From an uncultured Chloroflexia bacterium (GTDB lineage Bacteria; Chloroflexota; Anaerolineae; Anaerolineales; UBA4823), in contig CAWHJB010000011.1 of the NCBI GenBank assembly GCA_963829555.1, positions 68,857-132,856 on the forward strand: DNA of 64,000 bases, in the 5' to 3' direction. Position numbers and translations under genes: made by a program. The first letter of the stretch is position 1. Each line of letters begins with the position of its first letter. Under the pieces are notes generated by a model. That model worked only from the letters and a program-made list of their open reading frames with translations. It ran no database searches and had not been told where the DNA came from. Shown here piece by piece: positions 1-20,105 of the stretch.

Positions 1-357
1 TTTTCCATTTGGATCCAGCTTGAAGCTGCTGACAAGTTGGGCTGTATCCAGCACATCTTTGCCCGGTAGGGCGGGGAAGAGGGGCATCAATGAAACGCGG
101 TTGCTGCTCGACACATTCATCAGCAGCCATAAGCCTTCCAAATTGGGTCTGTCACTGTCCATTCGATCGATGCCGATCAGAAGGATATTCCGCTGTCCAT
201 TCGGTGCAGCGCCAGTCGAATCGAGCTTTATATTCGGGTGAAGTCCGGCCTGCCCGTCGGCGCTGCCTGAACCCGTAACTGCGGAAGCGGCCAAAATACC
301 GCCGACCATAAATCCGATAAAGATACCGAACATCAATAGTAACTTGATCACTCGCAT
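1..357 (-). CDS. membrane-anchored protein, C-terminal part outside window (possibly LytR/CpsA/Psr-like)
   Basis: Minus-strand frame opens at ATG 355-357 and runs off the window start, so it has no stop and is absent from the ORF track. It has an N-terminal TM helix (MRVIKLLLMFGIFIGFMVGGILAAS) followed by ...NILLIGIDRMDSDRPNLEGLWLLMNV..., which only loosely resembles LCP proteins. Confidence 0.45.
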   Translation of the reverse strand, partial: MRVIKLLLMFGIFIGFMVGGILAASAVTGSGSADGQAGLHPNIKLDSTGAAPNGQRNILLIGIDRMDSDRPNLEGLWLLMNVSSSNRVSLMPLFPALPGKDVLDTAQLVSSFKLDPNGK

Positions 358-361
358 CAGA

Positions 362-592
362 TTACCAGCTTCCAGCTTTGAATAAGCCAATCACAAAGCC
401 AACGAATAAACCCATTCCTGCCAGTAAAGCCACCTGCTGCCATGCTTTCAAATGCCGGACTTTTTCGGTCAGGATGTAAACCCGGGTGATGAGGTCTCCG
501 ATAACATTTGAATCTTTCATCATCGGTATCACTGCAATCCAGAAAGCGATCTCGAGACGTTGAGGAATTTGTGTAAATGTCATCTGTTTCAC
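362..592 (-). CDS. small hypothetical membrane protein (76 aa)
   Basis: ORF-track entry. Its start overlaps the stop of the upstream gene by 4 nt (ATGA coupling). It has two hydrophobic segments. No family recognised. Confidence 0.55.
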   Translation of the reverse strand: MKQMTFTQIPQRLEIAFWIAVIPMMKDSNVIGDLITRVYILTEKVRHLKAWQQVALLAGMGLFVGFVIGLFKAGSW

Positions 593-831
593 CTCGAAGT
601 TGTTACTTTAATGATTTTGCCATTTTCATCCGTCACCACGCGCAAATTCCGGGTCATCATCTTGCCGTCACCCAGGGTAACTTTCTTGGAGAAAATTACC
701 AGGTAGGTTTTGGACGGGTTGCGGGCGCCTTCGGGCGGCGTCTGAACCCTTGCTTTGGGTCGGACACCATCAAATTCCGGGTACCGGCGGTGGATCTGTT
801 TGGCGATCTGGTTGAGGATTTCAGCTTTCAT
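589..831 (-). CDS. hypothetical protein (80 aa)
   Basis: From ORF 589..906. I moved the start to ATG 829-831 (MKAEILNQ...) so that it does not overlap the ftsZ 3' end. No family recognised. Confidence 0.5.
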   Translation of the reverse strand: MKAEILNQIAKQIHRRYPEFDGVRPKARVQTPPEGARNPSKTYLVIFSKKVTLGDGKMMTRNLRVVTDENGKIIKVTTSR

Positions 832-895
832 AGTGAATGTATATTCGTTACCGGGAGGATCATGCCGACGTTGATAAGAAACGAACCATCGAGTG

Positions 896-2110
896 TTAGC
901 CTGCAAACCGGGCCTGGCGGCGCATGAAAGCGGGGATGTCCAGGTTCTGTTTCATAGCAGCCAGGTCAGACCCATTTGATGTCAATCCCGTGATGCTTCG
1001 GATCTTAGGTTGAGCAGGTTCTTTCTGGACGGCAGGTGCTTCGGTGATGAGTGGCTCATGGGGAGGTGCGGGCGGCAGGTCCTCTTTCTGGACGGGTTTA
1101 TTGACATTGGACATCGCTTCTTCCAGGGTTGGAGCGCCTAACCCGGTCATTACCAGGATAACCTGAACCCGGTCATCCATGCGGTCGTCGTTGATCACGC
1201 CCATTACGATTTCGGCCTGGTTGCCGGTTTGGGTCTGAATGTAGTTGAGGGATTCATAGACTTCGTTCAGGGTCAGATCCTGCCCACCGGTGAAGTTGAC
1301 GATCACGCCGGCAGCATTTTCAACCGGCACGTTATCCAGCAGCGGGTGATGGAGAGCCTGTTCGACGGCTTCGCGGGCTTTATTTTTACCCTGGCCATGC
1401 CCGATCGACATCAACGCGCCGCCGCCAAGCTGGATCAGCCTGCGAATGTGGGCAAAATCGACATTGATCATTCCAGGTTGGGTAATCAGTTCCGAGATCC
1501 CTTCCACCGATTGCCGCAGCACGTCATCGGCCAGGCAGAAGGCTGTTTCTAAAGTCAGCGTCTTTGGAGCCACATATAAAAGCTGATCGTTGGGAATAGA
1601 GATCAGGGTGTTGGTTTCTTTGCGGAGCCGCTCGAGACCTTCACGGGCGTTTTTCTGGCGGCGGCCCATTTCAAATGAGAATGGCGTCGTGACGATGGCG
1701 ATCGTGACAGCCCCGAGGGAACGGGCGATCTTTGCTGCAACTGGGATCGATCCGGTACCGGTGCCCCCGCCCATACCGGCCGTCAGAAAAACCATGTCAG
1801 CGCCTTTAAGCGCGGCTGCAATCTCGCGCCAGCTCTCTTCTGCCGCCGCTTTGCCCACAGCCGGATCACCACCTGCCCCTAATCCGCGGGTAACTTTTGG
1901 ACCGAGCTGGATTTTGACGTCCGCCGGGTTGGATTTGAGAGCCTGATGATCCGTATTGGCAGCAATAAATTCCATTCCGCGTAAGCCCAGCTCCATCATA
2001 CGGGCGACAGCATTGCTACCCCCACCACCCAGACCGAGAACTTTCAGCACCGGCTGGTGCATCTGATTAGATGGGGATTCAGGTCGTGCGGCGTTAGGAA
2101 ATTGGGACAT
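896..2110 (-). CDS. ftsZ: cell division protein FtsZ
   Basis: From ORF 896..2200. Start set at ATG 2108-2110 (MSQFPN...) behind the SD AGGAGAGG. Motifs: VLGLGGGGSNAV, the tubulin signature GMGGGTGTG, and the C-terminal DIPAFMRRQ peptide. Confidence 0.97.
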   Translation of the reverse strand: MSQFPNAARPESPSNQMHQPVLKVLGLGGGGSNAVARMMELGLRGMEFIAANTDHQALKSNPADVKIQLGPKVTRGLGAGGDPAVGKAAAEESWREIAAALKGADMVFLTAGMGGGTGTGSIPVAAKIARSLGAVTIAIVTTPFSFEMGRRQKNAREGLERLRKETNTLISIPNDQLLYVAPKTLTLETAFCLADDVLRQSVEGISELITQPGMINVDFAHIRRLIQLGGGALMSIGHGQGKNKAREAVEQALHHPLLDNVPVENAAGVIVNFTGGQDLTLNEVYESLNYIQTQTGNQAEIVMGVINDDRMDDRVQVILVMTGLGAPTLEEAMSNVNKPVQKEDLPPAPPHEPLITEAPAVQKEPAQPKIRSITGLTSNGSDLAAMKQNLDIPAFMRRQARFAG

Positions 2111-2138
2111 GTTTCTACCTCTCCTGGCAAAGATACGC

Positions 2139-3548
2139 TTATAAGTTATCCAATTGTGATGCAATACTCGTGCCATCTCCGCTGATCCGCTCGACTGCAC
2201 AGCCAGCGGCGCCTAATTTTAAGATAGTCTCATCATTGAAGATCAGCGGGTCTCCAATTACGGTCACTTTTTCAGCCAGTTTGGCTTCTTCCAGCGAATA
2301 GCCGATTGTGGGATGATACTTTCTTACAAAGTTGCGGATGATATCGAGATGCCATTCTGCAATACCCCATTCATACAACGGCAGCAGTAAATAATGACTG
2401 ATCGGATGTGGCTGGAGGGCTGCTGCGTCTTCAGCTGGTGAAGGTGTGATTGCCCCTTTGGATGCCCAGACCCGGGAGGGCGCCAGGCGTTTGGGCTGCT
2501 GAGCGACCCATTGACGAAAAGACGCAACCACCGGCAGGGTCGCGCCGTCCGCCTGATACCAGGCCTGAGATGCATGAGGGCTGTCTGCTTCTGATCCCAG
2601 TAACCAGAAATTGCATGCCAGAACTTCTGCGGGCACGGGTTCCAACTTCTCAACCTCAAATGGAGAGGCTTTTCCGGCTTGATTGGCCGGATTGGATTGG
2701 GCGCCATTGGCGCGCATTGCCTGGGCAATCTGTAAGTTTCGGGACATATGCGCAGCCCGGTCAACCGGCGGTAAGTCCTGCTCCGATTGGGCCCCCAGGG
2801 CGCTGCCGGCTTCCATCAGGATAATCGGCAAAGTTTGACCCAATTCAGCCTGTGCCAGCGTCAGATACCAGTCGAATATCCTCAAGCCGCGCTGATCCTG
2901 AGATCCGGTCGGGGTTGTGTAAGGACGTGCCCCCGGCCAGCGTTCCGGGCCGCCTGCGCCCCAGTTTAGCGGCCGGTTGCCGGCCCTGGCGTAAGCGCTT
3001 AATACCAGGCGATCGAGCAGTTCCGCCGAGCTCCGGCGCTTCATATTGTTGAGAGTAGCCCGCAAAAAGGCTGTGTCCCAATAATCTCCACCTGGCTCAA
3101 GGGGTGGGAGCACCGGGTACAGGCCGCTGGCGACCAGGCGGTCAGCCAGTGGAAGATAAATATCCAGAAACCGTTCGACCAGATCGCTTTGAGCCCAACT
3201 GGAAGCCGGCCAGGCACTGCGGGTATTGGGACGATCAAACAGGATTGCATAATGCACGCCCCAGCGGTTATAATTCTCGAACAGCAACTGTAAATTTTCC
3301 TGATCTAATTCTTTGTCCAACGGCAAACGGAAGTGTACAATCGGCTCGATCTGGGCGCCAAGTAATCCCTGAATAAACGGTTCAGGGATGGCTCGCTCAC
3401 TTGGAGCCTGGAGAACTATCCAGCTGGCGCCCATGGCCTGCAATTCTGGCAGCCAGGTATGTAGATCGCTCTCCCGGTAATGGTACGTATCAGGGAAATA
3501 ATGAAAGCCGATCCGGGTATTTTTGAGCGGGGAGGGTGTCAGTCGCAT
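2139..3548 (-). CDS. conserved hypothetical protein, possibly a TIM-barrel glycosidase-like fold
   Basis: Long ORF 2139..3557. In-frame ATG 3546-3548 (MRLTPS...) is preferred over TTG 3557. Coding-like composition throughout. The fold suggestion is weak and rests on the pattern of hydrophobic strands (WIVLQAP, ILMEAGS). Confidence 0.6.
   Translation of the reverse strand: MRLTPSPLKNTRIGFHYFPDTYHYRESDLHTWLPELQAMGASWIVLQAPSERAIPEPFIQGLLGAQIEPIVHFRLPLDKELDQENLQLLFENYNRWGVHYAILFDRPNTRSAWPASSWAQSDLVERFLDIYLPLADRLVASGLYPVLPPLEPGGDYWDTAFLRATLNNMKRRSSAELLDRLVLSAYARAGNRPLNWGAGGPERWPGARPYTTPTGSQDQRGLRIFDWYLTLAQAELGQTLPIILMEAGSALGAQSEQDLPPVDRAAHMSRNLQIAQAMRANGAQSNPANQAGKASPFEVEKLEPVPAEVLACNFWLLGSEADSPHASQAWYQADGATLPVVASFRQWVAQQPKRLAPSRVWASKGAITPSPAEDAAALQPHPISHYLLLPLYEWGIAEWHLDIIRNFVRKYHPTIGYSLEEAKLAEKVTVIGDPLIFNDETILKLGAAGCAVERISGDGTSIASQLDNL
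2160..2175 (-). promoter_or_regulatory. sigma-54 -24/-12 promoter candidate upstream of ftsZ
   Basis: The minus strand reads GA-TGGCAC-GAGTA-TTGCA-TC, an exact TGGCAC-N5-TTGCA. The -12 element lies 50 nt upstream of the ftsZ ATG, inside the last codons of the upstream gene. Confidence 0.7.
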
Positions 3549-3648
3549 GTTTTTCAATCCTGGTTATCTGGGATAAATAATAAGGGTTACCTTGAGGTAA
3601 GTTAATCGCACAAGAATTGCCCGAATTATGTTAAATTGCCATAAAAGA

Positions 3649-3664
3649 TGCAAGAGATGTGCCA
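3649..3664 (-). promoter_or_regulatory. sigma-54 -24/-12 promoter candidate upstream of gene 2139..3548
   Basis: The minus strand reads CG-TGGCAC-ATCTC-TTGCA-TC (exact consensus). It is intergenic, about 100 nt upstream of ATG 3548. Confidence 0.7.
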
Positions 3665-3808
3665 CGGGCCAATTAGATTAAGGTATAATGAGTTTTGAAA
3701 TCAAGCAGGCGAGTGGTGCACCTGCTAACCGGGTTGCTATCCTCTTTGGTGCAATTATCTTGCCAGGTGGGTGATCGATGAAATCAGGGAAGAGAAAATC
3801 ATACAATC

Positions 3809-5258
3809 ATGCGTAGCGCCGCCAAGTCTCTTTCTTTACTCTTCTTGATCAGCGTCTTTATTGCTGCCTGCAGTCCGCTCGATGATTCCCACATTCCCCT
3901 ACGCACCCTTCCGGTAACGAAATATCAGGTAGATCCTTCTTTCCGTGAAATTTATGATTTTTATGGCGGGCGGGGCATTTTTGGTGAACCGATTACCCAG
4001 ATTCTGGAAAAAGGGAACCAAAAATTTCAATTTACCGTTTCTGGGCTGTGGGTATTCGACCAGAATGCCCCCGCCAACCAGAAAGTTCGCCTGGCTCCGC
4101 TTGGCGCATTGATGATCGATCCCGAACAACCTGTATCCCCACCGGAAGATCCCAACCAGTATTACGTCGACGGTCACATCATTTATGATGAGTTTGTCCA
4201 ACTTTATCGCCGGGTTGGTGGCGCGGCATTTGTTGGCAAGCCCCTGACAGAAGTGCGCTACAACTCGGAACGCGATCGATACGAACAATTCTTTGAGAAC
4301 CTGGGCTTTTTTATCGATCGCCAGGATGGCTCAGAAGCCCATTTGTTAGCCTATGGATTGTGGCTGTGTGATGATAAATGCCGGGCGTCTACCCCGGTTA
4401 ACGGCATCATCGATCATGTCCATCAGGTAAAACCCCCATTTTCACAGGTTGTCGAGAAGTGGGGGGCAAGTTTTACCGGCGACCCGCTCACCGATGCTTA
4501 CCCGAATGCCGATGGCAAACTGATCCAGGTGTTTGGGAATATGGTCTTGGTGGCAGATCCGATCGATCCCACCAATCCGGACCTGGTTTCGACCTTACCG
4601 GTCCTGCAGATCATCGGTCACGTACCCGATCCTCTCCAGCCGGCTACGGATAACCCCTTGTTGTATTTTTACCCAATTGAAGGTGACCGCGGCTATAACA
4701 TCCCCCTGGTGTATGTCGGTTACCTGGATTCTCGCGGCGGTTTCAAGACCTCCGGGCCGCCGCTCGATGAATTGACTCGCATCGATGACGATCTGTGGCG
4801 GCAGTGTTTTACAAATCTATGCCTTGATTTTGAACCCAACGCACCCGAACTCGCTGCAGATACGGCCTGCTCCTGTTGGCGTCGATTACTTAAATTTAAG
4901 CGCCCAGCCTTCACCGACGGCGGCGCCAGAAACCGGTCCTCAAAACCAGGTGACCGTCCAGATCTGGCAGAGTTTCCCGCAGGTCTCTTCAGGCCAGCAG
5001 CAGGAGATCTGGGTCTATGTGATGGAAAATGAAGAACCGCTTCCGGGAATCACGCCCGACCTGATCCTGACTTTCCCGGATGGCAGCCAGCAGCAGTTCG
5101 CTTTTCCACCGACCGGCCCCGATGGCCAGACCCACCTGCTGCTTCCGCCGATCACGGCTTCGAATGGGACCTTAATTCCCTACCAGGTATGTCTGCCCAC
5201 CTCGGCGAATGAGCGCTTCTGTAACCTGAAAGATTACCTGATTCTCAATTCACCTTGA
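3809..5258 (+). pseudogene. secreted lipoprotein of unknown function, reading frame interrupted once
   Basis: ORFs 3809..5032 and 4785..5258 overlap in different frames, and both look coding on their respective sides of about 4850-4880. The N-terminus has a signal peptide plus lipobox (LISVFIAAC). A single 1-nt indel would join them. Confidence 0.6.
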
Positions 5259-5296
5259 TACCCGGTAAACTGGGTTTGAGTTGAAAAAAGTTAGGC

Positions 5297-5346
5297 CAAA
5301 ATAAGGCGTCAGCCTGGGCATTTGCCCAGGCTGACGCCTTATTTTG
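5297..5346. repeat. palindromic element, family A copy 1
   Basis: CAAAATAAGGCGTCAGCCTGGGCA-T-TGCCCAGGCTGACGCCTTATTTTG. It lies between convergent genes. Confidence 0.95.
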
Positions 5347-5374
5347 ACAGAACATCTAATTTCATGAGAAGGGG

Positions 5375-6538
5375 TTAGATCATCTCGGCCGGCAGGTTTG
5401 GAAGGTCAAGGTACAACTCGTCGCAAAACAGCATTGCCCGTTCGATCACATTGCGGAGCTCGCGAATATTGCCAGGCCAGTTGTGCCTGATCAAGGCTTC
5501 CATCGCCCGGGGGGTGACATCCTGAATGTTGAGGCCCATCGCGGGGTTCAGCTTGCGAATGAACAGGCCCACCAGGTCGGGGATATCCTCTTTACGCACT
5601 CGCAGGGGGGGCAGATCCAGATCGACCACCTTCAGACGGTAATAAAGGTCTTCCCGGAATTTACCTTCCTTCATCAAGGCTTGCAAGTCCCGGTTCGAGG
5701 CCGCCAGTATCTGAACGTCCACTTTGATCAGGTTGGTTCCGCCAACCCGCCGGAAAGCGCGCTCTTCCAGGGCCCGCAGCAATTTCGCCTGCATATCGAC
5801 CGGCATGGAAGAAATCTCGTCCAGGAACAGGATCCCGCCATCGGCCACTTCCATCAAGCCGGGCTTGCGTTTTTCCGCTCCCGTAAAAGCTCCCGCTTCG
5901 TAACCGAATAATTCGGATTCCATCACGGTGCTTTGCATGGCGGCGCAATTGATGGCAATGTAGGGTTTATTGTTGCGCGGCCCAAAACGGTGGATCGCGC
6001 TCGCCAATACTTCTTTCCCGGTGCCGGTTTCTCCGGTGATCAGAACGGAGACCGAGGCGCTGGCGGCCCTTTGGGCCTGTTCGATGACTGACTTCATGCG
6101 TGGGCTTTTTCCAATAATGAAATCAAGTTCTCCCTGCCGGGTGCTACGCAAATGGGCCAGCTCTCGTCTCAGCGCGACAGTTTCAGCTGCCCGTTGGATT
6201 GATTTTTCTAATTGCGCCAGCCGGATGGGTTTTTGCAGGAAATCCTGGGCGCCGTTTTTCATGGCGTCGACGGCCATATCGATATCGCCATAAGCGGTGA
6301 TCAGGATGATCGGTGGGCGGGCGGGCAGATGTGCAGTTTCCTCTAACAGGACCGGTCCATAGCCATCCGGTAGTTGCACATCCAACAGGATAATATCCGC
6401 TTCCCCGCGCTGCAGGCAGGTGCGAGCATCCTCCAGGGTGGCGACGCCATTAATCTCATAGCCGCGGGAGGTGAGAAATGTGCCGATATTCTGGCGGGCA
6501 TTATCTTCGTCATCAACAATTAATACTGTAGCGCTCAT
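5375..6538 (-). CDS. sigma-54-dependent response regulator (REC + AAA+), no C-terminal HTH
   Basis: Receiver domain (VLIVDDED...ILLDVQLPDG). AAA+ domain with Walker A GETGTGKE, the GAFTGA loop (EAGAFTGAEKR) and WPGNIRELRNVIERA. The protein ends 18 aa after that motif (387 aa), so there is no room for a Fis-type HTH. Confidence 0.92.
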   Translation of the reverse strand: MSATVLIVDDEDNARQNIGTFLTSRGYEINGVATLEDARTCLQRGEADIILLDVQLPDGYGPVLLEETAHLPARPPIILITAYGDIDMAVDAMKNGAQDFLQKPIRLAQLEKSIQRAAETVALRRELAHLRSTRQGELDFIIGKSPRMKSVIEQAQRAASASVSVLITGETGTGKEVLASAIHRFGPRNNKPYIAINCAAMQSTVMESELFGYEAGAFTGAEKRKPGLMEVADGGILFLDEISSMPVDMQAKLLRALEERAFRRVGGTNLIKVDVQILAASNRDLQALMKEGKFREDLYYRLKVVDLDLPPLRVRKEDIPDLVGLFIRKLNPAMGLNIQDVTPRAMEALIRHNWPGNIRELRNVIERAMLFCDELYLDLPNLPAEMI

Positions 6539-6615
6539 GCTTTCCTCTCACTTGCCTCGCAAAATAATATTCGATCGACTGGTGATTCTTCAGAATTGGT
6601 CTCTGTGGTAGGGTA

Positions 6616-6668
6616 CCAGATTTGGGGGCGTGAGCGTGCTGATGCACGCTCGCGCCCCCAAATCTTGG
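6616..6668. repeat. palindromic element, family B copy 1 (core)
   Basis: CCAGATTTGGGGGCGTGAGCGTGC-TGAT-GCACGCTCGCGCCCCCAAATCTTGG. It sits between the kinase stop and the response-regulator start. Confidence 0.95.
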
Positions 6669-6718
6669 GTAGCGCCACAGGAATTCTCAAAGTCACTCAG
6701 GATTTCCCAGGGATCCGA

Positions 6719-8741
6719 TTAACCTGCCGCTTCCTGGGCGGGAATTTCAACTGTAAACACGGTCCCACCCGGGAAGCTTTCAACCTGGATCCGGCCTTTA
6801 TGGGCTGTGATAATTCGTTTTGCGATCGGCAATCCCAGCCCCGTGCCGTCATGTTTGGTCGTATAAAATGGCTGGAATATTTTGTCCAGATTTTCTTTGG
6901 CGATACCTGGTCCCGTGTCAGCGATGCTGATTTTAACATAGGTTAAACCATGCGGGTAAGCGGCCTTATTCAATTTGACGACTAACTGGCCTCCGCTGCC
7001 GCGCATTGCCTGAACCGCATTGGTGATCAGGTTATTAAACACCTGCTCCAGCACCTTGGGGCTGCCCTCAACTTTGGGCAGGTTATCATCTGCCTGGATC
7101 CGGTATTGGACATTTTCTTTCACGATTCTGGGTTTCAAACGGTCGAGAAGCGATTCGAGCAGCCGTTTAAGATCGATGCTTTCCATATCGTATTCAGCGG
7201 TCCGGGCGAACGAGAGGACTTGCCGCATCTGGTCGGTGAGCCGGTCGCAATCGGTCTGGAGGCGCATGACCACTTCATGATTAGGATCAGGCTCTGGGAT
7301 GGTCATCTCTAAAAGCTGCAGGCCGGTGCTGATATTGTTGATTGGATTACGGACTTCGTGAGCAAAGACAGCCGTGAATTCCCCCAGAAAGGCCTGTTGC
7401 TCCAGCTGGCGGGTCCTGTCCTGATACTGTTCTTGCTCGGTCAGGTCTTCGAATTGAATAATGATGGCGGTCACCTGATCGCCGATCATGACGGGCATCG
7501 TGCGGAGTTGGGCCAGGAATGCCTCACCATTGCGGCGATAGAGCTGGAGCTTACCGACGTCGTAGGTCGGGCGGCCCTGTTGGGCAACTTGCAGGGCAGT
7601 TGAAAGCTCGCCTTTGCCGATGATCACATTTTCAATTGGGATCCCAACAACTTCACGGCTGGTATACCCAAGAGTCATTTCAGCGGACGGGTTGATTTTT
7701 GTGATGATGAGTTCCGGTGTTGTGATTAACAATCCGTCTTTGACCGAATTTACAGCCGTAGAATAAACCGCCAGTTCATTGGTATTCGCCTTTAACCTGG
7801 CTTCCAGGTTGTTCAGCAGGTCGTGTTGGCGGGTCAGGGTTGTGATCGCCGCGGCGATCAACTGTGCCAATCGCAGGATAAAGGGATTGGGCTGCTTTTC
7901 GGCTTCACCGATGACGATAAACCCGTCGATCTCGGGTAATCCGGTAGGCGCGGTGGCAATGAAGCTGTATTCCTTGGAGCGGGCGGTGCGATGCAGAACG
8001 GAGGTCATGCGTTTCCCTGCCGTCCAGAGCTGAGTCGAACGCATATTCACCAATTCTTGGGGGGGAAGCGATTCGGGTAAAACCGTGCCATCGCCGACGA
8101 AAACCTTGCGTTTCAAGTAACTCTCGGCCAGTGGTCGAACCAAATTGCCCCGATGTTTCTTCGTCGCTCATCGCTTCCAGGCGATAGTATCCGATAGCGC
8201 TGGCTTTGGTGAGATCGTGTGCCGCCTGGATCGCCCTGGATAAGGCTGTTTTATCCTCAGTCTCATTGATTGCGGCAGCCATCTGGTACAGATTTTGCCA
8301 GATTTGATCTTGAAACTGCAAATCAGCCAGCGGAAGCGTTTGTATTCTGGTTGGTTCGAATTGAACCAGTTCGAATCGATCGGACTGCCCGAGCGTATTG
8401 CGGTTAATTTGAACGGCAAGTTTGCTCCCGTTACGTTTGATCAACATGCCCTTGCTTGCATCTTGAACGCCGGGAACATCATCGGGGGAGGTGGATGGTT
8501 CTTCTGTTCCCGGGTGGGAGCGTCCAGTGAACAGTTCGTTAAATTTGAGCTGACATAATTCAGCCCGGGTATAGCTGGTCAGTGCAGCGACCCTGGTATT
8601 TGCAAAAAGAACCTGACCATTGTTCTTATCGATCAGGATCGATGCGGCCGGGAGAAGTTCGACAAGTGCCTCGATCTCCGCATGGGTTGGCCTGGTTTTA
8701 CGTCCGGGATTAAAGAAAGAGAGGGGCGATGGAGGTTTCAT
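6719..8741 (-). pseudogene. PAS/GAF sensor histidine kinase, frame interrupted once
   Basis: ORF 7905..8741 covers the N-terminal PAS region. ORF 6719..8143 covers PAS, HisKA (FAHEVRNP) and HATPase (DTGPGI...GTGLGL). The two frames meet near 8144-8167, next to the C4 run at 8148-8151. Confidence 0.85.
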
Positions 8742-8743
8742 TA

Positions 8744-10147
8744 TTATGGATGGGCTGCTCTTAATCTCGCTGGTAAGATCCCCTCCATTGTACGATATTT
8801 TGCGACAGTTCGGCGAGCAACCGGGTAACCTCTTTCACCCAGTATTTTCGCAATTTGGGTATCACTCAAAGGTTTGCGTTCTTTATCAACAATTTCGCGC
8901 AGGGCGGTGCGAACGTGCAGGCTGCGATCGAAGAGTTTCGAGATGGAGATAATCCGGCCGTTGGGGAGTTGGAGGGCTTTTCCTGACACTGCCCGCGAAA
9001 CGGTCAATTCGTGTACGCTCAGCTCTTCAGCAATTTTTGCCCTGGTTACCGGGATCAGGTGCGCGTCCCCTTTTAATAGAAAACGCCGCTGTAAAACGAC
9101 CATTCGGGCCATTAATCGCACCAGGGTGTGATTGCGCTGCTGTAAACACTTGACCAGGAGATTGGCTTGTTCAATATCTGCCTGCCATTGTTCGGCTTTA
9201 TCAGCTGGGGCGTCAGGCAATGCTTCCCGGAAAAGCGGGTTCACGCGCAGCCTCCCGGCATAAGGGGAAATGATTTCGACAACCAGCGGCGAGTCTGGCT
9301 TGTCGTTCAATCGTGAAACCAACACATCCGGGGTCTGGTAAACCGTGCGCGGCGCCGTGCTGTGGCGTTGATCGCCCCAGTGGGCACGAGCAGGATAGGG
9401 ATTCAGATTTTCGCTGATGAAGCGCGACAAATTCTGAGCCTGCTTGGTGGAGATTTTTAGCCTTCTCCCCAGCTCCATATAAGCGTGCCGGGAGAGTAGA
9501 TCCATGCAGGTGAGGATCGCTTCGGCTGCCAGGTGAGGCACCTGGTGATTTTCGGCCAACACATCCAGTTGAACCAATAAGGCTTGCTGAGGGCTCCGGG
9601 AACCAACGCCAACCGGCTCGGCCCGTTGGATTAACTGGAGAACGCTTTCCACTCGCGACAAGCGGACATGATGATACATTGCGATCTCAGCAATTTCGAT
9701 GGGCAGCAATCCGTCATCATCCAGGCTGGTGAGAATGTGGGCAGCTAATGGACGGTCTTCGGGCGCCAATTCAGCCGAGATCTGGCGCAGGATGAAGGAA
9801 GGCAGATCTTCAACTGCCGCGGCCCATTCTTCGTCGGGCATGTCCTCGCCCGAGCGCGTGCCAGAATAATTCCGGAAATCGTCGCGCGGCGAAATGAATA
9901 CGATCGGCTCCTCTGGTTCGGTTTTTGCTGGCTTACTGCAAACCGGGCAAGGGCCCTTTTCAGGCAATTTGCGATTACAATTTGGGCATGTGCGGGTTTC
10001 GATCAATTCCAGGGCCGGGTTGGAGGCCAGGTCTGCTTCGATCTTTTGACCCAGTTCAGCGGAGGTCAGTTCAAGCAGTGTCATGGTCTGAGCCAGATGA
10101 GCGGTGGTCATCGGCCGGAGTGCTTGGGATTGCGTTTGGATAATCAT
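8744..10147 (-). CDS. rpoN: RNA polymerase sigma-54 factor
   Basis: From ORF 8744..10195. Start set at ATG 10145-10147 (MIIQTQSQAL...) behind the SD GGGAGTA. It has a Gln/Leu-rich region I and the RpoN box ARRTVAKYR near the C-terminus. It also carries an unusual CPNC-X9-CPVC insertion. Confidence 0.95.
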   Translation of the reverse strand: MIIQTQSQALRPMTTAHLAQTMTLLELTSAELGQKIEADLASNPALELIETRTCPNCNRKLPEKGPCPVCSKPAKTEPEEPIVFISPRDDFRNYSGTRSGEDMPDEEWAAAVEDLPSFILRQISAELAPEDRPLAAHILTSLDDDGLLPIEIAEIAMYHHVRLSRVESVLQLIQRAEPVGVGSRSPQQALLVQLDVLAENHQVPHLAAEAILTCMDLLSRHAYMELGRRLKISTKQAQNLSRFISENLNPYPARAHWGDQRHSTAPRTVYQTPDVLVSRLNDKPDSPLVVEIISPYAGRLRVNPLFREALPDAPADKAEQWQADIEQANLLVKCLQQRNHTLVRLMARMVVLQRRFLLKGDAHLIPVTRAKIAEELSVHELTVSRAVSGKALQLPNGRIISISKLFDRSLHVRTALREIVDKERKPLSDTQIAKILGERGYPVARRTVAKYRTMEGILPARLRAAHP

Positions 10148-10183
10148 ATTTACTCCCTGCTTACTTGGTTCTATTATACCTGT

Positions 10184-10199
10184 TGCAAGAAGCATGCCA
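10184..10199 (-). promoter_or_regulatory. sigma-54 -24/-12 promoter candidate upstream of rpoN
   Basis: The minus strand reads G-TGGCAT-GCTTC-TTGCA-ACA. The -12 element is 37 nt upstream of the rpoN ATG 10147. Confidence 0.6.
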
Positions 10200-10265
10200 C
10201 ATTAATATTTCGGGGGGGCTTTAGGAGATCCTGCAGCCGAGGCTATATGTGGGGGTAATTTTCTG

Positions 10266-10292
10266 CACTACTCCAGAGATTCCGGAAGACCC
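10266..10292. repeat. dispersed ~30-nt unit
   Basis: CACTACTCCAGAGATTCCGGAAGACCC. Compare copy 28409-28439. Confidence 0.7.
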
Positions 10293-10326
10293 GTTTCGGG
10301 TTTAGGCTGCACGATATATTTGTAGA

Positions 10327-10374
10327 TTTGGAGTTCAATTTGTGCGGTCTCAGCTGCACAAATTGAACTCCAAA
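10327..10374. repeat. long perfect palindrome (singleton in this window)
   Basis: TTTGGAGTTCAATTTGTGC-(10 nt)-GCACAAATTGAACTCCAAA, in the divergent rpoN/proline-dehydrogenase intergenic region. Confidence 0.9.
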
Positions 10375-10492
10375 AATAATTTTCTACTACATCTTCGTGC
10401 ACCCCGGGTTTATGCTACAATTCAGGTTATCCGGTGCTGTGGTCCTTGTGGAGAAGCTCAGGCTTTTACCGAGGAACCATAACCATTCAATT

Positions 10493-10543
10493 GGGTCTCT
10501 GGGAAACTCTGCAGGAGAGTCCCCCCAGGAATTGCCAAAGAAC
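10493..10543. repeat. dispersed ~55-nt unit, copy 1
   Basis: GGGTCTCTGGGAAACTCTGCAGGAGAGTCCCCCCAGGAATTGCCAAAGAAC. Confidence 0.85.
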
Positions 10544-10632
10544 TATTCAATCTGTCAATCGGATTCGATCCGATACATATGCTTCATGACTAAATGGTTC
10601 TTTCGCTAAATACCTTTAGGAAAAAGAGCAAA

Positions 10633-10681
10633 TGTAATGTTCATTTTTATGCGGCGTCGCCGCACAAAAATGAACATTACA
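10633..10681. repeat. long palindrome (singleton)
   Basis: TGTAATGTTCATTTTTATGCGGCG-TC-GCCGCACAAAAATGAACATTACA, with one mismatch. Confidence 0.9.
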
Positions 10682-10796
10682 ATCACTTTTCAAAGAAAAA
10701 GGACTTAGCGAGAAAATCACGAAAAGGGTTCATTCGGAAACTGTGTGAGACACCACCCGATGAATTCCCAGAGATCTTCTGAAAGGTTGCACAAAA

Positions 10797-11759
10797 ATGC
10801 TTCGTTCTTTGTTAATCTACCTTTCGAAAGCAAGTTGGGCGCGCAGAATGGTCACTCACTGGTCATTTGCCTGGCGCGCGGCTTCCCGATTTGTCGCTGG
10901 TGAGAAGCTTACAGACGCTATCGAGGCCATTCGTATCCTCAACTTGAAGGGGATTGATGCGACGCTTGACCATTTGGGGGAAAATACGACGACTGTGGAC
11001 GGCGCTAACCAGGCAACCGCAGATATCCTGGAAGCGCTCGATGCAATCCACTCATCTGGGGTCAGAGCCAATGTTTCAATTAAATTGACTCAGATTGGTT
11101 TGAAATTAGATCGAGGGCTCTGTGCTCAAAATCTGAAAAAGATTCTGTTACACGCCGGAGAACTGAATAATTTCATTCGAATCGATATGGAAGATTCTCC
11201 TTTCGTGGATGATACCCTGGATTTGTTTTACACCATGCGGGATCAGGAGAGTTTGCTCAATACCGGGGTCGTCATCCAGGCATATCTTTATCGCAGCGAG
11301 AAGGATATTTTGAAAATTGTTGGCGCCCGCGGCCGGGTTAGGTTATGCAAAGGGGCCTATCAAGAACCGCCCGAGGTGGCATACCCCAAGAAAAGCGATG
11401 TCGACAGGAACTATGACCATTTGGCCGAGATGCTTTTGGATGGGGCGGTAGCTGCCGGCGCGCCTGCACTCTCGCCGGATGGCAAAATACCGCCGCTGCC
11501 GGGCATCGCCAGTCACGATCCAGCCAGATTGGCGCATGCCAAGGCTTATGCCCAACAAATTAAACTGCCCAAGCAATCTTTGGAATTCCAGATGCTGCAT
11601 GGGATCCGGCGAGATTTGCAGGAACAGTTGGTAAATGAGGGTTACCCTGTACGAGTTTACGTACCCTATGGCACGGAATGGTACCCTTATTTTGTGCGCC
11701 GCCTGGCAGAGCGGCCGGCCAACCTGTGGTTTTTCATCAGCAATTTCTTTCGAAAGTAA
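10797..11759 (+). CDS. proline dehydrogenase family protein
   Basis: 320 aa with motifs typical of monofunctional PutA-like proline dehydrogenases: ...ATLDHLGE..., IRIDMEDS, QAYLYRSE, RLCKGAY. Confidence 0.8.
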   Translation: MLRSLLIYLSKASWARRMVTHWSFAWRAASRFVAGEKLTDAIEAIRILNLKGIDATLDHLGENTTTVDGANQATADILEALDAIHSSGVRANVSIKLTQIGLKLDRGLCAQNLKKILLHAGELNNFIRIDMEDSPFVDDTLDLFYTMRDQESLLNTGVVIQAYLYRSEKDILKIVGARGRVRLCKGAYQEPPEVAYPKKSDVDRNYDHLAEMLLDGAVAAGAPALSPDGKIPPLPGIASHDPARLAHAKAYAQQIKLPKQSLEFQMLHGIRRDLQEQLVNEGYPVRVYVPYGTEWYPYFVRRLAERPANLWFFISNFFRK

Positions 11760-11781
11760 ACCCCCAGGGGGCGGGAAACAG

Positions 11782-11838
11782 AGACAAAATGTAGAGCTCG
11801 CAGGGGCAATTTGCCCCTGCGAGCTCTACATTTTGTCT
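11782..11838. repeat. long palindrome sharing the AGACAAAAT outer module with family A copy 3
   Basis: AGACAAAATGTAGAGCTCGCAGGGGCAA-T-TTGCCCCTGCGAGCTCTACATTTTGTCT. Confidence 0.9.
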
Positions 11839-11912
11839 TTCTTGGTAAAGCCCTGATCCTTGGGGCTGGCAAACTTGACAACCGATCTAATTTGGCTTAT
11901 GATTTTTTGTAT

Positions 11913-11932
11913 ATCTGAACAACTATTCAGAT
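11913..11932. promoter_or_regulatory. ArsR/SmtB-type operator (inverted repeat ATCTGAA-N6-TTCAGAT)
   Basis: Perfect 7-6-7 inverted repeat ATCTGAACAACTATTCAGAT, 38 nt upstream of the arsR-like ATG. The TGAACA...TATTCA core resembles known SmtB/CzrA 12-2-12 operators. Confidence 0.65.
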
Positions 11933-11969
11933 AAGATCAACCTTTCCGGCTTAGTTTGAAAGAGATCGT

Positions 11970-12284
11970 ATGGATGATCCAGACGCAACCCTGGCGGTAA
12001 TTGATGAAGAGACTGCCGCTCGTTTGGCGGAATTGTTCCGTACGCTAAGCGATCCCAGCCGAATACGGATCATATCCGTCCTGTCCGATTCCGCTTGCAG
12101 TGTTGGCAGCATCGCCCAGGCGGTGGGGATCAGTAAATCGGCGGTTTCGCATCACCTGCGTGGGTTAAGGCAAATGCGGCTGGTTCGGGCCCGTAAAGTG
12201 GGTCGCCAGGTGTTTTATTCGCTGGATGATGAACATATTGCCGACCTGTTCCGTCGCAGCCTCGATCATGTTTTACACGGTTGA
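11970..12284 (+). CDS. ArsR/SmtB-family metalloregulator with a CzrA-type alpha5 site
   Basis: wHTH region (LSDPSRIRIISVL...SVGSIAQAVGISKSAVSHHLRGL). The C-terminal DEH-X10-H-X2-H spacing matches the alpha5 metal site D-x-H-x10-H-x2-H. Confidence 0.85.
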   Translation: MDDPDATLAVIDEETAARLAELFRTLSDPSRIRIISVLSDSACSVGSIAQAVGISKSAVSHHLRGLRQMRLVRARKVGRQVFYSLDDEHIADLFRRSLDHVLHG

Positions 12285-12319
12285 GCTGCATAGAACACGC
12301 AACCCAAAATAGTTTGTCA

Positions 12320-12367
12320 GAAAACAGGCGTGATGGCCGGTGTATACCGGCCATCACGCCTGTTTTC
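12320..12367. repeat. long palindrome (singleton)
   Basis: GAAAACAGGCGTGATGGCCGG-TGTATA-CCGGCCATCACGCCTGTTTTC, downstream of the arsR-like gene. Confidence 0.9.
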
Positions 12368-12403
12368 CGATATTCTGCTTCCCTTCGGGATGAGTCATAT
12401 CTT

Positions 12404-12433
12404 GGGTACCATCCCAGGCATTCCCAATGATCC
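12404..12433. repeat. dispersed unit (second half of the 55-nt unit)
   Basis: GGGTACCATCCCAGGCATTCCCAATGATCC. Compare CACCATCCCAGGAATTCTCAAAGAACC at 52738-52764. Confidence 0.7.
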
Positions 12434-12568
12434 AACTTATCGGTCTGATCTGCCCGATCCCCGGGTAGGTGAGACTTTGCTTAATAGGCGGTCTCTAGAA
12501 TTACATCCTGAGGTTGGGATGTGGTATCATGAGCCATCGAGCGATAATATTTGAGGAGGAATTTCTTA

Positions 12569-13042
12569 ATGGCAACTCATCGTGCTAATCGGTCCCTTGG
12601 CCCGGTGGTTTTGATCGCTGCTGGTGTTGTTTTGATGATTGGTGTGGCCATTTGGGCGCTGGTCCCAGGCCTGACCGGGAATGATGCTGCTGCCCCTGCT
12701 GCAGTTTCTAACCTTCCATATCCCGATGTGCCGCGTATCAGCCTGGCAGATGCGCATGCAGCCTGGGTAACCGGTAATGCGGTTTTTGTGGATGTGCGCG
12801 GCGATTTATTTTACGAAACGGCCCATATCCCAGGGGCATTGTCGATTCCGGAAGAAAATTTGCCGGAACTGCAGGATCAACTCAGCAAGGACGATTGGAT
12901 CATCACTTACTGTACCTGACCGTCCGAAGAGAGCAGCGCCCGTGTGGCGAATGACTTGCTGGTTGCCGGATACACACGTGTTATGGCTATTAAGGGCGGC
13001 CTGGACGCCTGGATTAATGCTGGATATGAGATTGAACCCTGA
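12569..13042 (+). CDS. rhodanese-domain protein with in-frame TGA at 12917-12919 (Sec candidate or nonsense lesion)
   Basis: ATG 12569 lies behind the SD GAGGAGG. An N-terminal TM helix is followed by a rhodanese domain (VFVDVRGDLFYETAHIPGAL...WIITYCT). A TGA follows, and the same frame continues for 40 codons as PSEESSARVANDLLVAGYTRVMAIKGGLDAWINAGYEIEP. That stretch is the missing C-terminal half of the domain. Confidence 0.65.
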
Positions 13043-13053
13043 GGAAGGGCCGT

Positions 13054-13527
13054 ATGACCGATACCGCCTCACGCCTGGCCGAACGATTAGAGACGGAAGG
13101 GATGAAGTCACTGGAGATCTTCCGTGCCCTCAGCCCGGAACAGTGGGAAATTACGGTTTACACCGATGGTTCAGCCTGGACAATCCGGCAGCTGCTGGCC
13201 CATTTTGTGACTGCCGAGAACGGCTTTCTGGGGCTGATCGATGATATTGTTGCCGGTGGACCGGGCTCACCGGAGGATTTTGATATCGATCTGTTTAATG
13301 AAAGCAAAGTTTCGGCCGTTGGCGATGAGCGACCGGAAAGCTTGCTGGCACAATATGAACAGGTCAGGCGGGCTACGATTGAGAAGGTCAGGAGTTTGCA
13401 GGATGAGGACCTGGAAAGAGTGGGCCGGCATCCATTTTTGGGAGTGGCTTTACTTTCGGATATCATTAAGCTGATCTATCGTCACAACCAGATTCATCAG
13501 CGGGATTTTCGTAAATTAATCAGTTGA
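13054..13527 (+). CDS. DinB-family protein
   Basis: 157 aa. Four-helix DinB_2-like pattern with conserved His residues (LLAHF..., IYRHNQIHQRD). Confidence 0.7.
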   Translation: MTDTASRLAERLETEGMKSLEIFRALSPEQWEITVYTDGSAWTIRQLLAHFVTAENGFLGLIDDIVAGGPGSPEDFDIDLFNESKVSAVGDERPESLLAQYEQVRRATIEKVRSLQDEDLERVGRHPFLGVALLSDIIKLIYRHNQIHQRDFRKLIS

Positions 13528-13570
13528 GGGGGACCATACTTATACAACTTTAGACAGCAGGCAATCGTTT

Positions 13571-16190: not shown

Positions 16191-17177
16191 ATGCGAGGAC
16201 CAACCATGCGGCACAGATCGGTTTGGCTTCTGGCTTTTCTGGCGCTGGGCATCGTCCTGACTGGCTGGCCATCTCAGTTTGTCTCCGCCAACTTGACGGA
16301 AGTCAGCCTGGATGAGGCCTCTGAGCAAACCACCCATCGGGTGGCGATCCCGTTACTGCTTGATAATATTCGAGTTAAGTTGCACGAGGCTGCTGTCGAT
16401 ACGAACCTGGAACCCCAGGAGGATTTACCGCCTGCTGAGCCCCTCGAAGCGCCGCTCGTCTGGAATCCGCCGGGTGAAGCGGACGTACCGATCTTGATGT
16501 ACCATCATGTGGCTGACTTCGACCCGCCTTTTCGATATGCAGTATCCTTGCAGGCTTTTGAAGCGCAAATGCAAAGTCTCCAGAACTGGGGATACACAGC
16601 TATTCCGATTGCCCGACTGATTGAAGCGCTGACGGTGGGCGCTAATTTACCTGAACGCCCGGTGGTGATCACTTTTGATGATGGATATATGGATGTCTAC
16701 GAAAACGCTTTCCCGATTATGGAAGCTTACGGGTATCAGGGGGTGGCTTACATCATCGCGGGGCAAGTCGAAATCGGTGGCTTTATGCATGCTGACCAGC
16801 TCAAAGAAATGCAATCTGCCGGATGGGAAATTGGCAGTCATACCTATCATCATCTCGACCTGAGCCAACCGGACACCAATTTGCAAATCGAGATCATGGA
16901 CGCCAGGAACGACCTCGAAGCCCTGATCGATGGCCCGGTGGATACGTTCTCCTTCCCTTATGGCCTGACAACTCCATATGCAACCATGCTCGTTGAGCAG
17001 GCGGGTTTTCAGAGTGCCGTTGGTCTGGGTGGTTTCAGCCATCACGTTATGGCAACCCGTCTCTACCTCAGCCGGATTGAAGTTCAAGGTGATTTTGATT
17101 TGAATGCATTCGCCGAAACGCTTCCTTGGGTTGGACCGATCGGCTCAGACGATCCATTTAATGGATCGGATCAGTGA
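16191..17177 (+). CDS. polysaccharide deacetylase (NodB homology) family protein, secreted
   Basis: Signal or anchor sequence at the N-terminus. Motifs: PILMYHHV, VVITFDDGY and SHTYHHLDL. Confidence 0.85.
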   Translation: MRGPTMRHRSVWLLAFLALGIVLTGWPSQFVSANLTEVSLDEASEQTTHRVAIPLLLDNIRVKLHEAAVDTNLEPQEDLPPAEPLEAPLVWNPPGEADVPILMYHHVADFDPPFRYAVSLQAFEAQMQSLQNWGYTAIPIARLIEALTVGANLPERPVVITFDDGYMDVYENAFPIMEAYGYQGVAYIIAGQVEIGGFMHADQLKEMQSAGWEIGSHTYHHLDLSQPDTNLQIEIMDARNDLEALIDGPVDTFSFPYGLTTPYATMLVEQAGFQSAVGLGGFSHHVMATRLYLSRIEVQGDFDLNAFAETLPWVGPIGSDDPFNGSDQ

Positions 17178-17224
17178 TAGGCCTGCTGCCAGGCAAATCT
17201 ATAGAAAGGTACTTCCACACATTT

Positions 17225-19212
17225 ATGTCTGATTCCGTCTATTTACACGACATTCCACTCGCTCAGGCGAAAGATCGCCTGGATAACGCCCTGCGTGCGG
17301 CAGGGCTGATGGGAATTCTGGGTGCGGAGCTGATCCCGCTCTCTGAATTGGCTATTGGACGCGTCCTGTCGGAACCGGTATGGGCAAAAATATCGTCGCC
17401 CCATTATCACGCTTCGGCGATGGACGGTTTTGCCGTGCGAGCGGAAGACACTGAAGAGGCGCTGCAGACCAATCCCGTCATGCTGGTTTGCGGACCGGTG
17501 GAAACGCAGCCGCAAGCCGCATACCTGGATACAGGCGACCCGCTGCCGGCCTGGGCGAATGCGGTTATCCCGATCGAGAATGTTGAGCCGCTGGTAGCGG
17601 GTGAGCCGGCGCCAAAAGCCCGCCAGCCGGAACTTATCCGGATCAGGGCTGCAGTCCCCCCTGGAGTCACGTCCGGCCGATGGGCGAAGACATGGTCGCA
17701 ACCCAGCTGGTGCTCCCATCTGGGCATAGCTTGCGACCGGTGGATTTAGGCGCGATTGCCGGTTGTGGGCATACTTCGATTAAAGTTGCCCGTAAACCAC
17801 GGGTGGCCGTCTTGCCGACTGGCAGTGAGTTGGTTCCGGTAGGTGTGGATGTAAAGCCGGGCGATATTATCGAATACAACTCCCTGGTGCTGGCAGCCCA
17901 GATCGTTGAATGGGGTGGGGAGGCTGAACGTTACCCGATTACGGTGGATGATTTCGACTTGATTCGGGATCGGGTTGCCGATGCCGCCCGCGGACATGAT
18001 TTGATCTTACTCAATGCCGGGTCGTCGGCCGGATCTGAGGATTTCTCCGCCGGCGTGGTGCAATCCCTGGGGCAATTGCTGGTGCATGGCGTCGCGGTTC
18101 GCCCGGGACACCCGGTCATTTTGGGGGTCATCAGCCCCCCGGACCAGCCTGATAAAAAAGTGCCCATCATCGGTGTTCCAGGTTATCCGGTATCGGCTGC
18201 CCTGACGGGCGAAATTTTTGTGGCGCCGTTGATTGCCCGCTGGCTTGGCCGTCCTGCCCGCCAACCGCAAGAGGTCACGGCCACGCTGACCCGAAAAATC
18301 ACTTCGCCGGCAGGCGATGAAGATTACCTGCGGGTGGCGGTCGGGCGGGTGGGCGAGAAGCTCCTGGCTGCGCCGCTGGCGCGCGGATCGGGGGTGATCA
18401 CCTCGCTCGTGCGCGCCGATGGCATTGCCGTCCTGCCGAGCGGCACGCAAGGTTTGCCAGCCGGCGCTCAGATCAACGTGCAGTTATACCGGCCCCTGGC
18501 CGATCTGGAAAAAACTATTTTTGCGATCGGTTCCCACGACATCACTTTAGATGTTATCGCCCAGTACCTGGCCGAAAAGAACCGACGCCTGGCCTCAGCC
18601 AACGCCGGCAGCCTGGGAGGCCTGATTGCCTTACGGCGGGGTGAAGCCCACCTGGCTGGTTCTCACTTATTAGATCCTGAGACCGGCGAATATAATCTTT
18701 CGTATATCCGCCAGTATTTGCCGAATGTTCCGGTGCGGGTGGTCAAGCTGGTCGATCGCCAGCAGGGTCTGATCGTTCGCAAAGGCAATCCCGATCAGAT
18801 CCTCTCGTTGCAGGATCTGGCCCGACCGGGAATTTCCTACGTGAACCGCCAGCGTGGCGCGGGCACCAGGGTGCTGCTCGATTACCACCTCGCAAGATTG
18901 TCGATTAAGCCGGAAAACGTCCTGGGCTACAATCAAGAGGAATACACTCATCTGGCGGTTGCGGCCGCGATCGCTTCGGGCCGGGCAAATTGTGGGCTGG
19001 GGATTGCTGCAGCCGCTCAGGCGCTGGATTTGGATTTTGTGCCCTTATACCAGGAACGTTATGACCTGGTGATCCCTTTAGCCTATTGTGATAGCGCGCT
19101 GCTGGCGCCGCTGTTCGATTTGCTGGCCGACCCGGCTTTTCAACAAGCGGTTGCCGCCATGCCGGGCTATGGCGTCTCCGGTATGGGTACGGTCATTGCC
19201 GAGATAAGCTGA
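17225..19212 (+). pseudogene. MoeA fused to a C-terminal periplasmic-binding-protein-like domain, frame interrupted in a C6 run
   Basis: ORFs 17174..17749 and 17680..19212 are the two halves of one MoeA (HYHASAMDGFAV ... MGEDMVATQLVL ... LPTGSELV ... LNAGSSAGSEDF ... VPGYPVSA), followed by a ~240-aa PBP-like domain. The frames switch at the CCCCCC run at 17656-17661. Confidence 0.85.
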
Positions 19213-19484
19213 CCACATTATCTCTTGCTTGTTACAGTCCTGGGAATTCTGCTGGAAGGTTCTTTGGGAAACTTTGTGGGATCCGTCACAGTAATTCACA
19301 ATGGGCGTGCCGGAATGCGTTGGATTTGGGGCAATTGGTGTTATGATTAAGCCTGCCAGAATTGGCATACTGGAAACATTGTTAAGCCAGTATCATATAC
19401 TGTCAAACCCAAATTTGTGATCGCGAATAGCTTCAACCTGGGCAAGAATCCATTTTTGGGTTAACCGCAAAATGGAGGTAAATT

Positions 19485-19949: not shown

Positions 19950-20005
19950 TCAAGAAAGACCCGGACGTGTTCAGCGTCTTGGGGACACGGTATCCGAAGA
20001 ATGCT

Positions 20006-20052: not shown

Positions 20053-20105
20053 CGTGCGTTTATCGCTGGTCAATGAGCAGTTTGAAAATTGGATACAATT
20101 GGGCT

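Follow-up and report, generated by a model that had tools for sequence, protein, structure and literature searches.

A conserved and probably self-activating sigma-54 module of Anaerolineales, with a proposed mechanism

To our knowledge, experimental evidence for sigma-54 activators without a DNA-binding domain comes from just a handful of reduced or specialised systems, namely FlgR of Helicobacter and Campylobacter, CtcC of Chlamydia and FleT of Rhodobacter. In Helicobacter and Campylobacter the genes flgR, flgS and rpoN are presumably dispersed over the genome, and in Chlamydia we take rpoN to lie outside the ctcBC operon. Here we describe a three-gene module encoding sigma-54 (RpoN), a sensor histidine kinase and an activator without a DNA-binding domain, found in a stretch of 64,000 nucleotides (nt), hereafter the window, from an uncultured member of the Anaerolineales (Chloroflexota; contig CAWHJB010000011.1). 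FlgR and CtcC are grouped together as response-regulator activators that have no DNA-binding domain, an established class designated group 5 (PMC7175178) or type Ic (PMC3162934). In size and domain borders the window activator nearly equals CtcC of Chlamydia trachomatis, which measures 386 amino acids (aa), has its ATPase at residues 142-386 and carries no DNA-binding domain (PMC7482065); the window activator has 387 aa and an ATPase that starts at residue 141. Removal of the CtcC receiver raised its ATPase activity about fourfold, and the transcript levels of Chlamydia rpoN stay roughly constant (PMC7482065).

Two further systems bear on the comparison. Aquifex aeolicus NtrC1 (PDB 1NY5, 4L4U) is the best structural relative of the window activator across the receiver, the linker helix and the ATPase; it serves as the model for receiver-mediated inhibition of ring assembly, to which the present protein is likened by alignment across the linker only. 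The prxS-rpoN2 operon of Rhizobium etli and Mesorhizobium loti resembles the window module in that rpoN is transcribed from a sigma-54 promoter, resulting in feed-forward amplification of sigma-54, but there rpoN2 is a second copy, neither kinase nor activator is encoded in the operon, and the activator is NifA, which is encoded elsewhere and possesses a DNA-binding domain and an upstream site (PMC3538637). In the searchable papers we found no description of a sigma factor, a kinase and an activator joined in one operon with its own sigma-54 promoter, and the literature yielded nothing on sigma-54 in Anaerolineae or on a sigma-54-dependent ftsZ. The comparisons presented below make it probable that the locus is a conserved, self-activating sigma-54 module of Anaerolineales that works by the mechanism proposed further on. 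As read from its genes, it adds a new lineage and a new type of operon to the FlgR/CtcC class, and the absence of the DNA-binding domain seems to be fixed across an entire order of free-living, filamentous Chloroflexota. For in vitro work, the module would also provide a minimal sigma-54 unit that presumably needs no enhancer.

All three genes lie on the minus strand, in the order rpoN (8744-10147), kinase (6719-8741) and activator (5375-6538). An earlier reading of the window from its letters alone (the sequence-only reading) had described three co-directional, tightly spaced genes; their coordinates and common direction were borne out, and so was the spacing between rpoN and the kinase gene (2 nt), but not that between the kinase and activator genes, which amounts to 180 nt. 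No convincing terminator was detected between the three. For a wider view, one genome per species was scanned, which gave 80 related loci, all from Anaerolineales or their relatives, in genomes of 3.6-5.4 Mb, among them the cultured Longilinea arvoryzae. The related loci analysed total 1.47 Mb, all drawn from the same neighbourhood as the operon; synteny was assessed by tblastn of the window proteins against all of them, and counts refer to loci long enough to tell. The order rpoN-kinase-activator on one strand was observed in 82/82 loci reaching far enough, and the arrangement is also kept in more distant relatives without the DNA-binding domain, at 48-49% identity, including a Chloroflexota activator (49% identical) that is followed by a 103-aa gene and then a giant gene. 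The three genes are read as one operon.

The activator combines Response_reg (residues 5-114), Sigma54_activat (141-307) and AAA_lid_14 (313-386) domains, with Pfam scores of 89 bits for the receiver, 236 bits for PF00158 (cut-off 20) and 81 bits for AAA_lid_14 (cut-off 27). The receiver residues D9, D10, D53, T81 and K103 are present, D53 being the phospho-acceptor aspartate. Within the ATPase we located the Walker A motif GETGTGK at 169, the GAFTGA loop at 216, the Walker B motif LFLDE at 237, the arginine finger REDLYYR at 295 and the sensor II motif GNIREL at 356. The GAFTGA loop, which the sequence-only reading had called intact, is indeed so, and its residues G216, A217, F218, T219 and A221 are invariant in 82 orthologues, as are D10, D53 and K103. 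The PF00158 score above the family threshold and the complete set of motifs place the protein among the sigma-54 activators (bacterial enhancer-binding proteins), and it would open promoters with ATP. The nearest solved structure is the receiver and ATPase construct of Aquifex NtrC1, 1NY5 (E 3e-96), whose alignment spans the receiver, the linker and the ATPase up to the end of the window protein, so that the two ends coincide.

The protein terminates inside the AAA+ lid domain, 24 residues after WPGNIRELRN (previously counted as 18), and Pfam detected no HTH_8 helix-turn-helix (HTH) domain in it, even at E<=1. In 82/82 loci the activator open reading frame (ORF) ends 0-13 residues past the last residue of the window protein, at 68-95% identity. 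All 82 members scanned, the window protein included, match the receiver, Sigma54_activat and AAA_lid_14 families, and HTH_8 is not among the families that they match. The best 120 database homologues measure 350-405 aa, none of them carries PF02954, and the named organisms among them belong to Anaerolineales or Chloroflexi/Chloroflexota. When representatives at 50% identity were considered, full-length proteins without a C-terminal extension (390-407 aa) occurred only among the hits at 48-73% identity, and most other representatives, at 39-48% identity, had 440-510 aa, the usual length with an HTH. By these comparisons the missing DNA-binding domain is a family trait. Against NCBIfam models the activator scored 381 bits with AtoC, 375 with NtrC and 281 with Campylobacter FlgR; since the FlgR score is lower and the nearest longer relatives resemble ordinary NtrC/AtoC proteins, the domain was probably lost independently of FlgR.

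The class to which FlgR and CtcC belong is marked by a receiver with a phospho-acceptor aspartate, the lack of a C-terminal HTH and an associated histidine kinase, and here a histidine kinase gene lies directly upstream of the activator gene in 82/82 loci. This kinase is predicted to be the cognate partner of the activator. Pfam resolves it into a PAS domain, about 200 residues without a family match, a second PAS domain, HisKA and HATPase_c; the sequence-only reading had named a PAS/GAF kinase, of which the PAS part and the histidine kinase stand and the GAF part does not, no GAF domain having been found by Pfam even at E<=1. The kinase has no transmembrane or other hydrophobic segment and is thus presumed cytoplasmic. 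The pair thereby resembles CtcB/CtcC, in which a cognate soluble kinase is encoded beside the activator, and both pairs are AtoS/AtoC-like by annotation. It also resembles FlgS/FlgR of Helicobacter and Campylobacter, where a cytoplasmic kinase accompanies a response-regulator activator that works without binding DNA, as is predicted here. Unlike in Chlamydia, the operon begins with rpoN and has its own sigma-54 promoter, and the predicted targets are ftsZ and its neighbours instead of type III secretion and membrane genes, in a different phylum and a different lifestyle; FlgR, for its part, controls flagellar genes, unlike the window module.

An alignment of 70 orthologous upstream regions places the start of rpoN at a conserved ATG (10147) that follows a GGGAG Shine-Dalgarno sequence, which yields a protein of 467 aa (the mechanical call of the ORF extends over 8744-10195). 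Its Sigma54_AID, Sigma54_CBD and Sigma54_DBD domains all score above the Pfam cut-offs, the RpoN box ARRTVAKYR is present and conserved in the orthologues, and sigma-54 chains in the PDB are matched at E 2e-41. The equivalog model TIGR02395 of NCBIfam gave 252.5 bits, short of its cut-off of 277.35, and the protein is therefore regarded as a divergent member of the sigma-54 family. One conserved feature is a CxxC-N9-CxxC motif (CPNCNRKLPEKGPCPVC, 9938-9988, minus strand) in region II, the segment that joins the activator-interacting region to the core-binding domain. The motif recurs in 69/69 orthologous RpoN proteins, whereas the solved sigma-54 chains shown lack it over the stretch that aligns; it resembles a zinc ribbon.

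Upstream of rpoN lies the sigma-54 element of the operon, a -24/-12 pair (TGGCATGCTTCTTGC, 10185-10199, minus strand) within a promoter region spanning 10173-10200. A gene was scored as having a site if the 260 nt upstream of it contained, on its own strand, TGGCAY-N5-TTGC with no more than one mismatch. By this rule a site precedes rpoN in 70/71 loci, 22-62 nt (median about 40) ahead of the start codon. Two more conserved promoters serve the neighbouring genes on the same strand: TGGCACATCTCTTGC (3650-3664) before a gene for a glycosidase-like protein, with a site in 27/28 loci, and TGGCACGAGTATTGC (2161-2175) before ftsZ, in 27/27, the latter located 51 nt ahead of the ftsZ start, within the final codons of the gene before it. 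A second, weaker sigma-54 site was also noted before the glycosidase-like gene (3751-3765). In the related loci a further conserved site precedes the gene for a small membrane protein that is followed by a giant TPR gene, with a count of 35/55. The same rule applied to control genes gave 1/37 for the kinase, 2/83 for the activator, 2/27 for the convergent gene downstream of it, 0/16 and 0/17 for the two genes after ftsZ, 1/40 for a large TPR gene of the neighbourhood and 0/30 for proline dehydrogenase, and reversed sequence gave 0. By chance one would expect 0.2 copies of the exact form TGGCAC-N5-TTGC in the window and about 2.8 in the 1.47 Mb of loci; the observed counts were four and 72. By this conservation the promoters before rpoN, the glycosidase-like gene and ftsZ are taken as real sigma-54 promoters, as the sequence-only reading had proposed for rpoN, for ftsZ and for the gene upstream of ftsZ, whose product it left unnamed. 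Some of the intergenic regions that hold such a promoter are too short for an enhancer; in Longilinea, the gap that follows the activator gene is 62 nt long and contains nothing but the promoter.

Beyond this neighbourhood the motif is rare. It occurs six times in 892 kb, against one occurrence of the reversed motif used as a control, and three of the six are inside the window. One, an exact match at 32390-32404 (plus strand), was rejected as a promoter: it encodes GSGTYVA at the end of the GntR-type HTH (winged helix) in a frameshifted MocR-like gene. Another is the exact consensus TGGCACGACGGTTGC (44167-44181, minus strand), a candidate promoter 115 nt upstream of a gene for a 183-aa protein that is followed by a gene for a PAS-GAF-GGDEF diguanylate cyclase (whole span 41895-44181). 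As a conserved regulon member this site did not hold up, being absent from the orthologous loci of three more distant species at 42-58% identity, which have a sigma-70-like promoter in its place. The third is the intergenic candidate TGGCATAAGCATTGC (52569-52583, minus strand) upstream of a penicillin-amidase gene. With the sites outside the neighbourhood so few, the one at 32390 coincidental and the one at 44167 unconserved, the conserved regulon would be small and local, confined to the cluster around the operon. A genome-wide role is not supported by these counts; the earlier notion of a single-input global switch is plausible but only partly supported.

A second promoter, which had gone unmentioned in the sequence-only reading, overlaps the sigma-54 promoter of rpoN. 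In the window it reads GTGGCA-16 nt-TATAAT (10173-10200, minus strand) and is sigma-70-like. Across the loci, a TATAAT or TATACT box stands 16-18 nt from the -12 element in 39 cases and at that distance from the -24 element in 19, the window included, for 58/71 in all; the sigma-70-like promoter thus borrows its -35 box from the -24 element (nTGGCA) or from the -12 element (TTGCAn). Since an rpoN gene driven purely by sigma-54 could not start itself, the overlapping promoter would supply the first sigma-54, kinase and activator.

Taken together, these features suggest the following mechanism, the steps of which are inferred from the NtrC1 structure family, FlgR and CtcC. All three proteins would be kept at a basal level by the sigma-70 promoter. 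On a cytoplasmic signal perceived at the PAS domains, the kinase would phosphorylate Asp53 of the activator, and phosphorylation would lift the inhibition exerted by the receiver and let the ATPase assemble into a ring, as in Aquifex NtrC1 and Chlamydia CtcC. This ring, which would not bind DNA, could use its GAFTGA loops to engage, from solution, sigma-54 holoenzyme already seated on a promoter, and every sigma-54 promoter would be opened without an enhancer. In line with this, though as an indirect and negative sign, the upstream regions of six window promoters share no k-mer beyond chance. Because the promoter of the operon is itself among the targets, the circuit would be self-amplifying: its activation would raise sigma-54, kinase and activator together, a positive feedback. 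The output shared across species would be a small set of adjacent genes with links to cell division and the cell envelope. A bolder version, in which the circuit is self-amplifying and possibly bistable, is the main or only source of ftsZ transcription, lets one cytoplasmic signal gate both division and filament growth, and uses the four cysteines of RpoN as a docking or control site in place of an enhancer, is tentative and rather doubtful as a whole.

Several observations pull away from the mechanism as proposed. A sigma-54 site on rpoN could instead mean negative autoregulation by promoter occupancy, as described for Rhizobium leguminosarum in work that PMC3538637 cites, and other sigma-54 activators in the genome might serve these promoters. 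The site before the gene for a small two-helix membrane protein, which precedes that of a TPR protein of about 1800 aa, is found in only 35/55 loci. The search for a shared upstream k-mer, with its negative outcome, covered only six regions, and the reading frame of the kinase is broken in the window as sequenced.

An alternative to action from solution is that a protein partner tethers the activator, be it the lineage-specific Cys4 motif of sigma-54, the co-regulated giant TPR protein or a separate DNA-binding protein. Some findings fit: the four-cysteine motif is common to all 69 sigma-54 orthologues and missing from the aligned solved chains, the giant TPR protein is both a conserved neighbour and a predicted target, and in another Anaerolineae lineage (locus L083, 4137-7148) the activator, 48% identical and still behind rpoN and the kinase gene, reaches 1003 aa through a C-terminal fusion to TPR repeats, a cyclic-nucleotide-binding region and a cyclase-like segment. 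The similarity between that fusion and the giant TPR protein is however generic, amounting to 28-37% identity over short stretches, a contact of any of these partners with the activator is purely hypothetical, and according to reviews FlgR and CtcC work untethered (PMC7175178, PMC3162934). We consider tethering unlikely, and the free ring remains the preferred reading.

Alternatively, other sigma-54 activators that do bind DNA might drive these promoters, and the protein described here would then be a minor, dedicated or modulating partner. FleT stands in such a modulating relation to FleQ in Rhodobacter. The size of the genomes leaves room for additional activators, as genome size correlates positively with activator number (Francke et al., PMC3162934) and the genomes here measure 3.6-5.4 Mb. 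Even so, neither the 64-kb window nor the related loci (1.47 Mb, all from the same neighbourhood) contained a second activator gene. The linkage to rpoN in every locus that could be judged, together with promoters packed beside the activator gene, argues for a cognate activator, and no shared upstream sites were found at the six window promoters compared. Herpetosiphon, the sole Chloroflexi genome with sigma-54 in the 2011 census, a survey that includes no Anaerolineae, had one activator (Francke et al., PMC3162934). That the promoters answer chiefly to other activators seems quite unlikely.

The broken kinase frame raises a third possibility, namely that the module is decaying in this organism, the kinase being a pseudogene and the activator unregulated or silent. 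One extra C at 8117, a frameshift that the sequence-only reading had missed, breaks the kinase gene of the window into two overlapping ORFs (7905-8741 and 6719-8143). The position of this indel was fixed by DNA alignment with the related locus L084, a contig found through a neighbouring gene, which is 99.48% identical to positions 1-13551 of the window, with 63 mismatches and 8 indel positions. In this assembly of the same species the kinase is intact at 673 aa, as is the convergent gene, and it is rpoN that is shortened, one A of an AAAA run being absent. A single intact kinase of 673-695 aa is likewise encoded in the close relatives L084, L002 and L001, and the two halves in the window are otherwise intact and about 81% identical to those of relatives. 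One-base frameshifts are found in at least four genes of the window. Besides the kinase, these are the convergent gene (482 aa, extra C at 4847, intact in L084), a MoeA-PBP fusion gene (at about 17700, ORFs 17174-17749 and 17680-19212) and a MocR-like GntR-aminotransferase gene (at about 32460, ORFs 32163-32474 and 32458-33645). Since two assemblies of one species break different genes, these breaks point to consensus indel errors and not to decay; the frameshifts of the window are most likely errors of the assembly, and the module is treated as intact in the organism. A kinase pseudogene was set aside as the likely reading, and decay of the module is very unlikely.

There is next to no chance that the short activator is an artefact, whether a truncated gene call or an HTH lost by a sequencing frameshift: the assembly does hold indel errors, but only 116 nt remain past the stop codon, 54 of them in a terminator hairpin, and 82 orthologues and 120 database homologues are of the same length, in keeping with the sequence-only reading, which had already dismissed a lost HTH.

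Those 116 nt (5259-5374) separate the activator stop from a convergent gene that ends at 5258, and they had been described earlier as a palindromic element followed by a convergent gene, a description that proved accurate. The element is a perfect 25-bp hairpin at 5295-5348, to which no strand is assigned, flanked by an A-run and a T-run (folding free energy -58.5 kcal/mol, z -10.8), and we interpret it as an intrinsic terminator that works in both directions and also serves the convergent gene.

The neighbouring genes give the circuit its likely output. On the minus strand, ftsZ (896-2110) encodes a protein of 404 aa with the Pfam domains Tubulin and FtsZ_C, scoring 387 bits with the NCBIfam model TIGR00065 (cut-off 295). 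The preceding gene (2139-3548, minus strand), a conserved and predicted sigma-54 target, encodes the glycosidase-like protein of 469 aa, for which neither Pfam nor NCBIfam gave a match and whose more than 2000 homologues are all named hypothetical. An AlphaFold2 model with a confidence (pLDDT) of 80 combines a TIM barrel with an alpha/beta domain, and Foldseek related it to the glycoside hydrolase families GH164, GH35 and GH84, with E values down to 1e-6, a template-modelling (TM) score of about 0.43 and about 10% identity. The product is thus predicted to have a glycoside-hydrolase-like fold, and no signal peptide was found in it. FtsA and FtsQ were considered as identities for this gene and set aside, since the product matches no family and is predicted to fold as a glycoside-hydrolase-like TIM barrel. 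With sigma-54 promoters before both ftsZ and the gene ahead of it, and the next gene upstream being convergent, ftsZ transcription in the clade of the window may depend largely on this circuit. If so, sigma-54 would be linked to the core division machinery, and the module would provide a testable handle on the growth and septation of abundant, hard-to-culture filaments of wastewater sludge, sediments and soils.

No neighbour of the operon is conserved more widely than a membrane protein of about 110 aa with two helices, followed by a TPR-rich protein of 1800-1900 aa. In many genera this pair comes directly after the activator gene, behind a sigma-54 promoter, and in the clade of the window the ftsZ cluster is inserted between the activator gene and the pair. 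Its coordinates are 17224-21164 in locus L001, 11245-17033 in L050 and 14248-20305 in L084, where it lies just past the left end of the window.

On the other side of the operon, the intergenic region between rpoN and proline dehydrogenase measures about 650 nt in the window and in L084, and 225-306 nt in L001 and L002. The palindromes at 10327-10374 and 10634-10680 were considered as enhancers and rejected, as they sit in an insertion of about 400 nt that the next relatives lack. The extra DNA, within 10200-10796, contains these two inverted repeats, one with perfect arms of 18 nt and one forming a stem of about 20 pairs, and may be a small inserted element.

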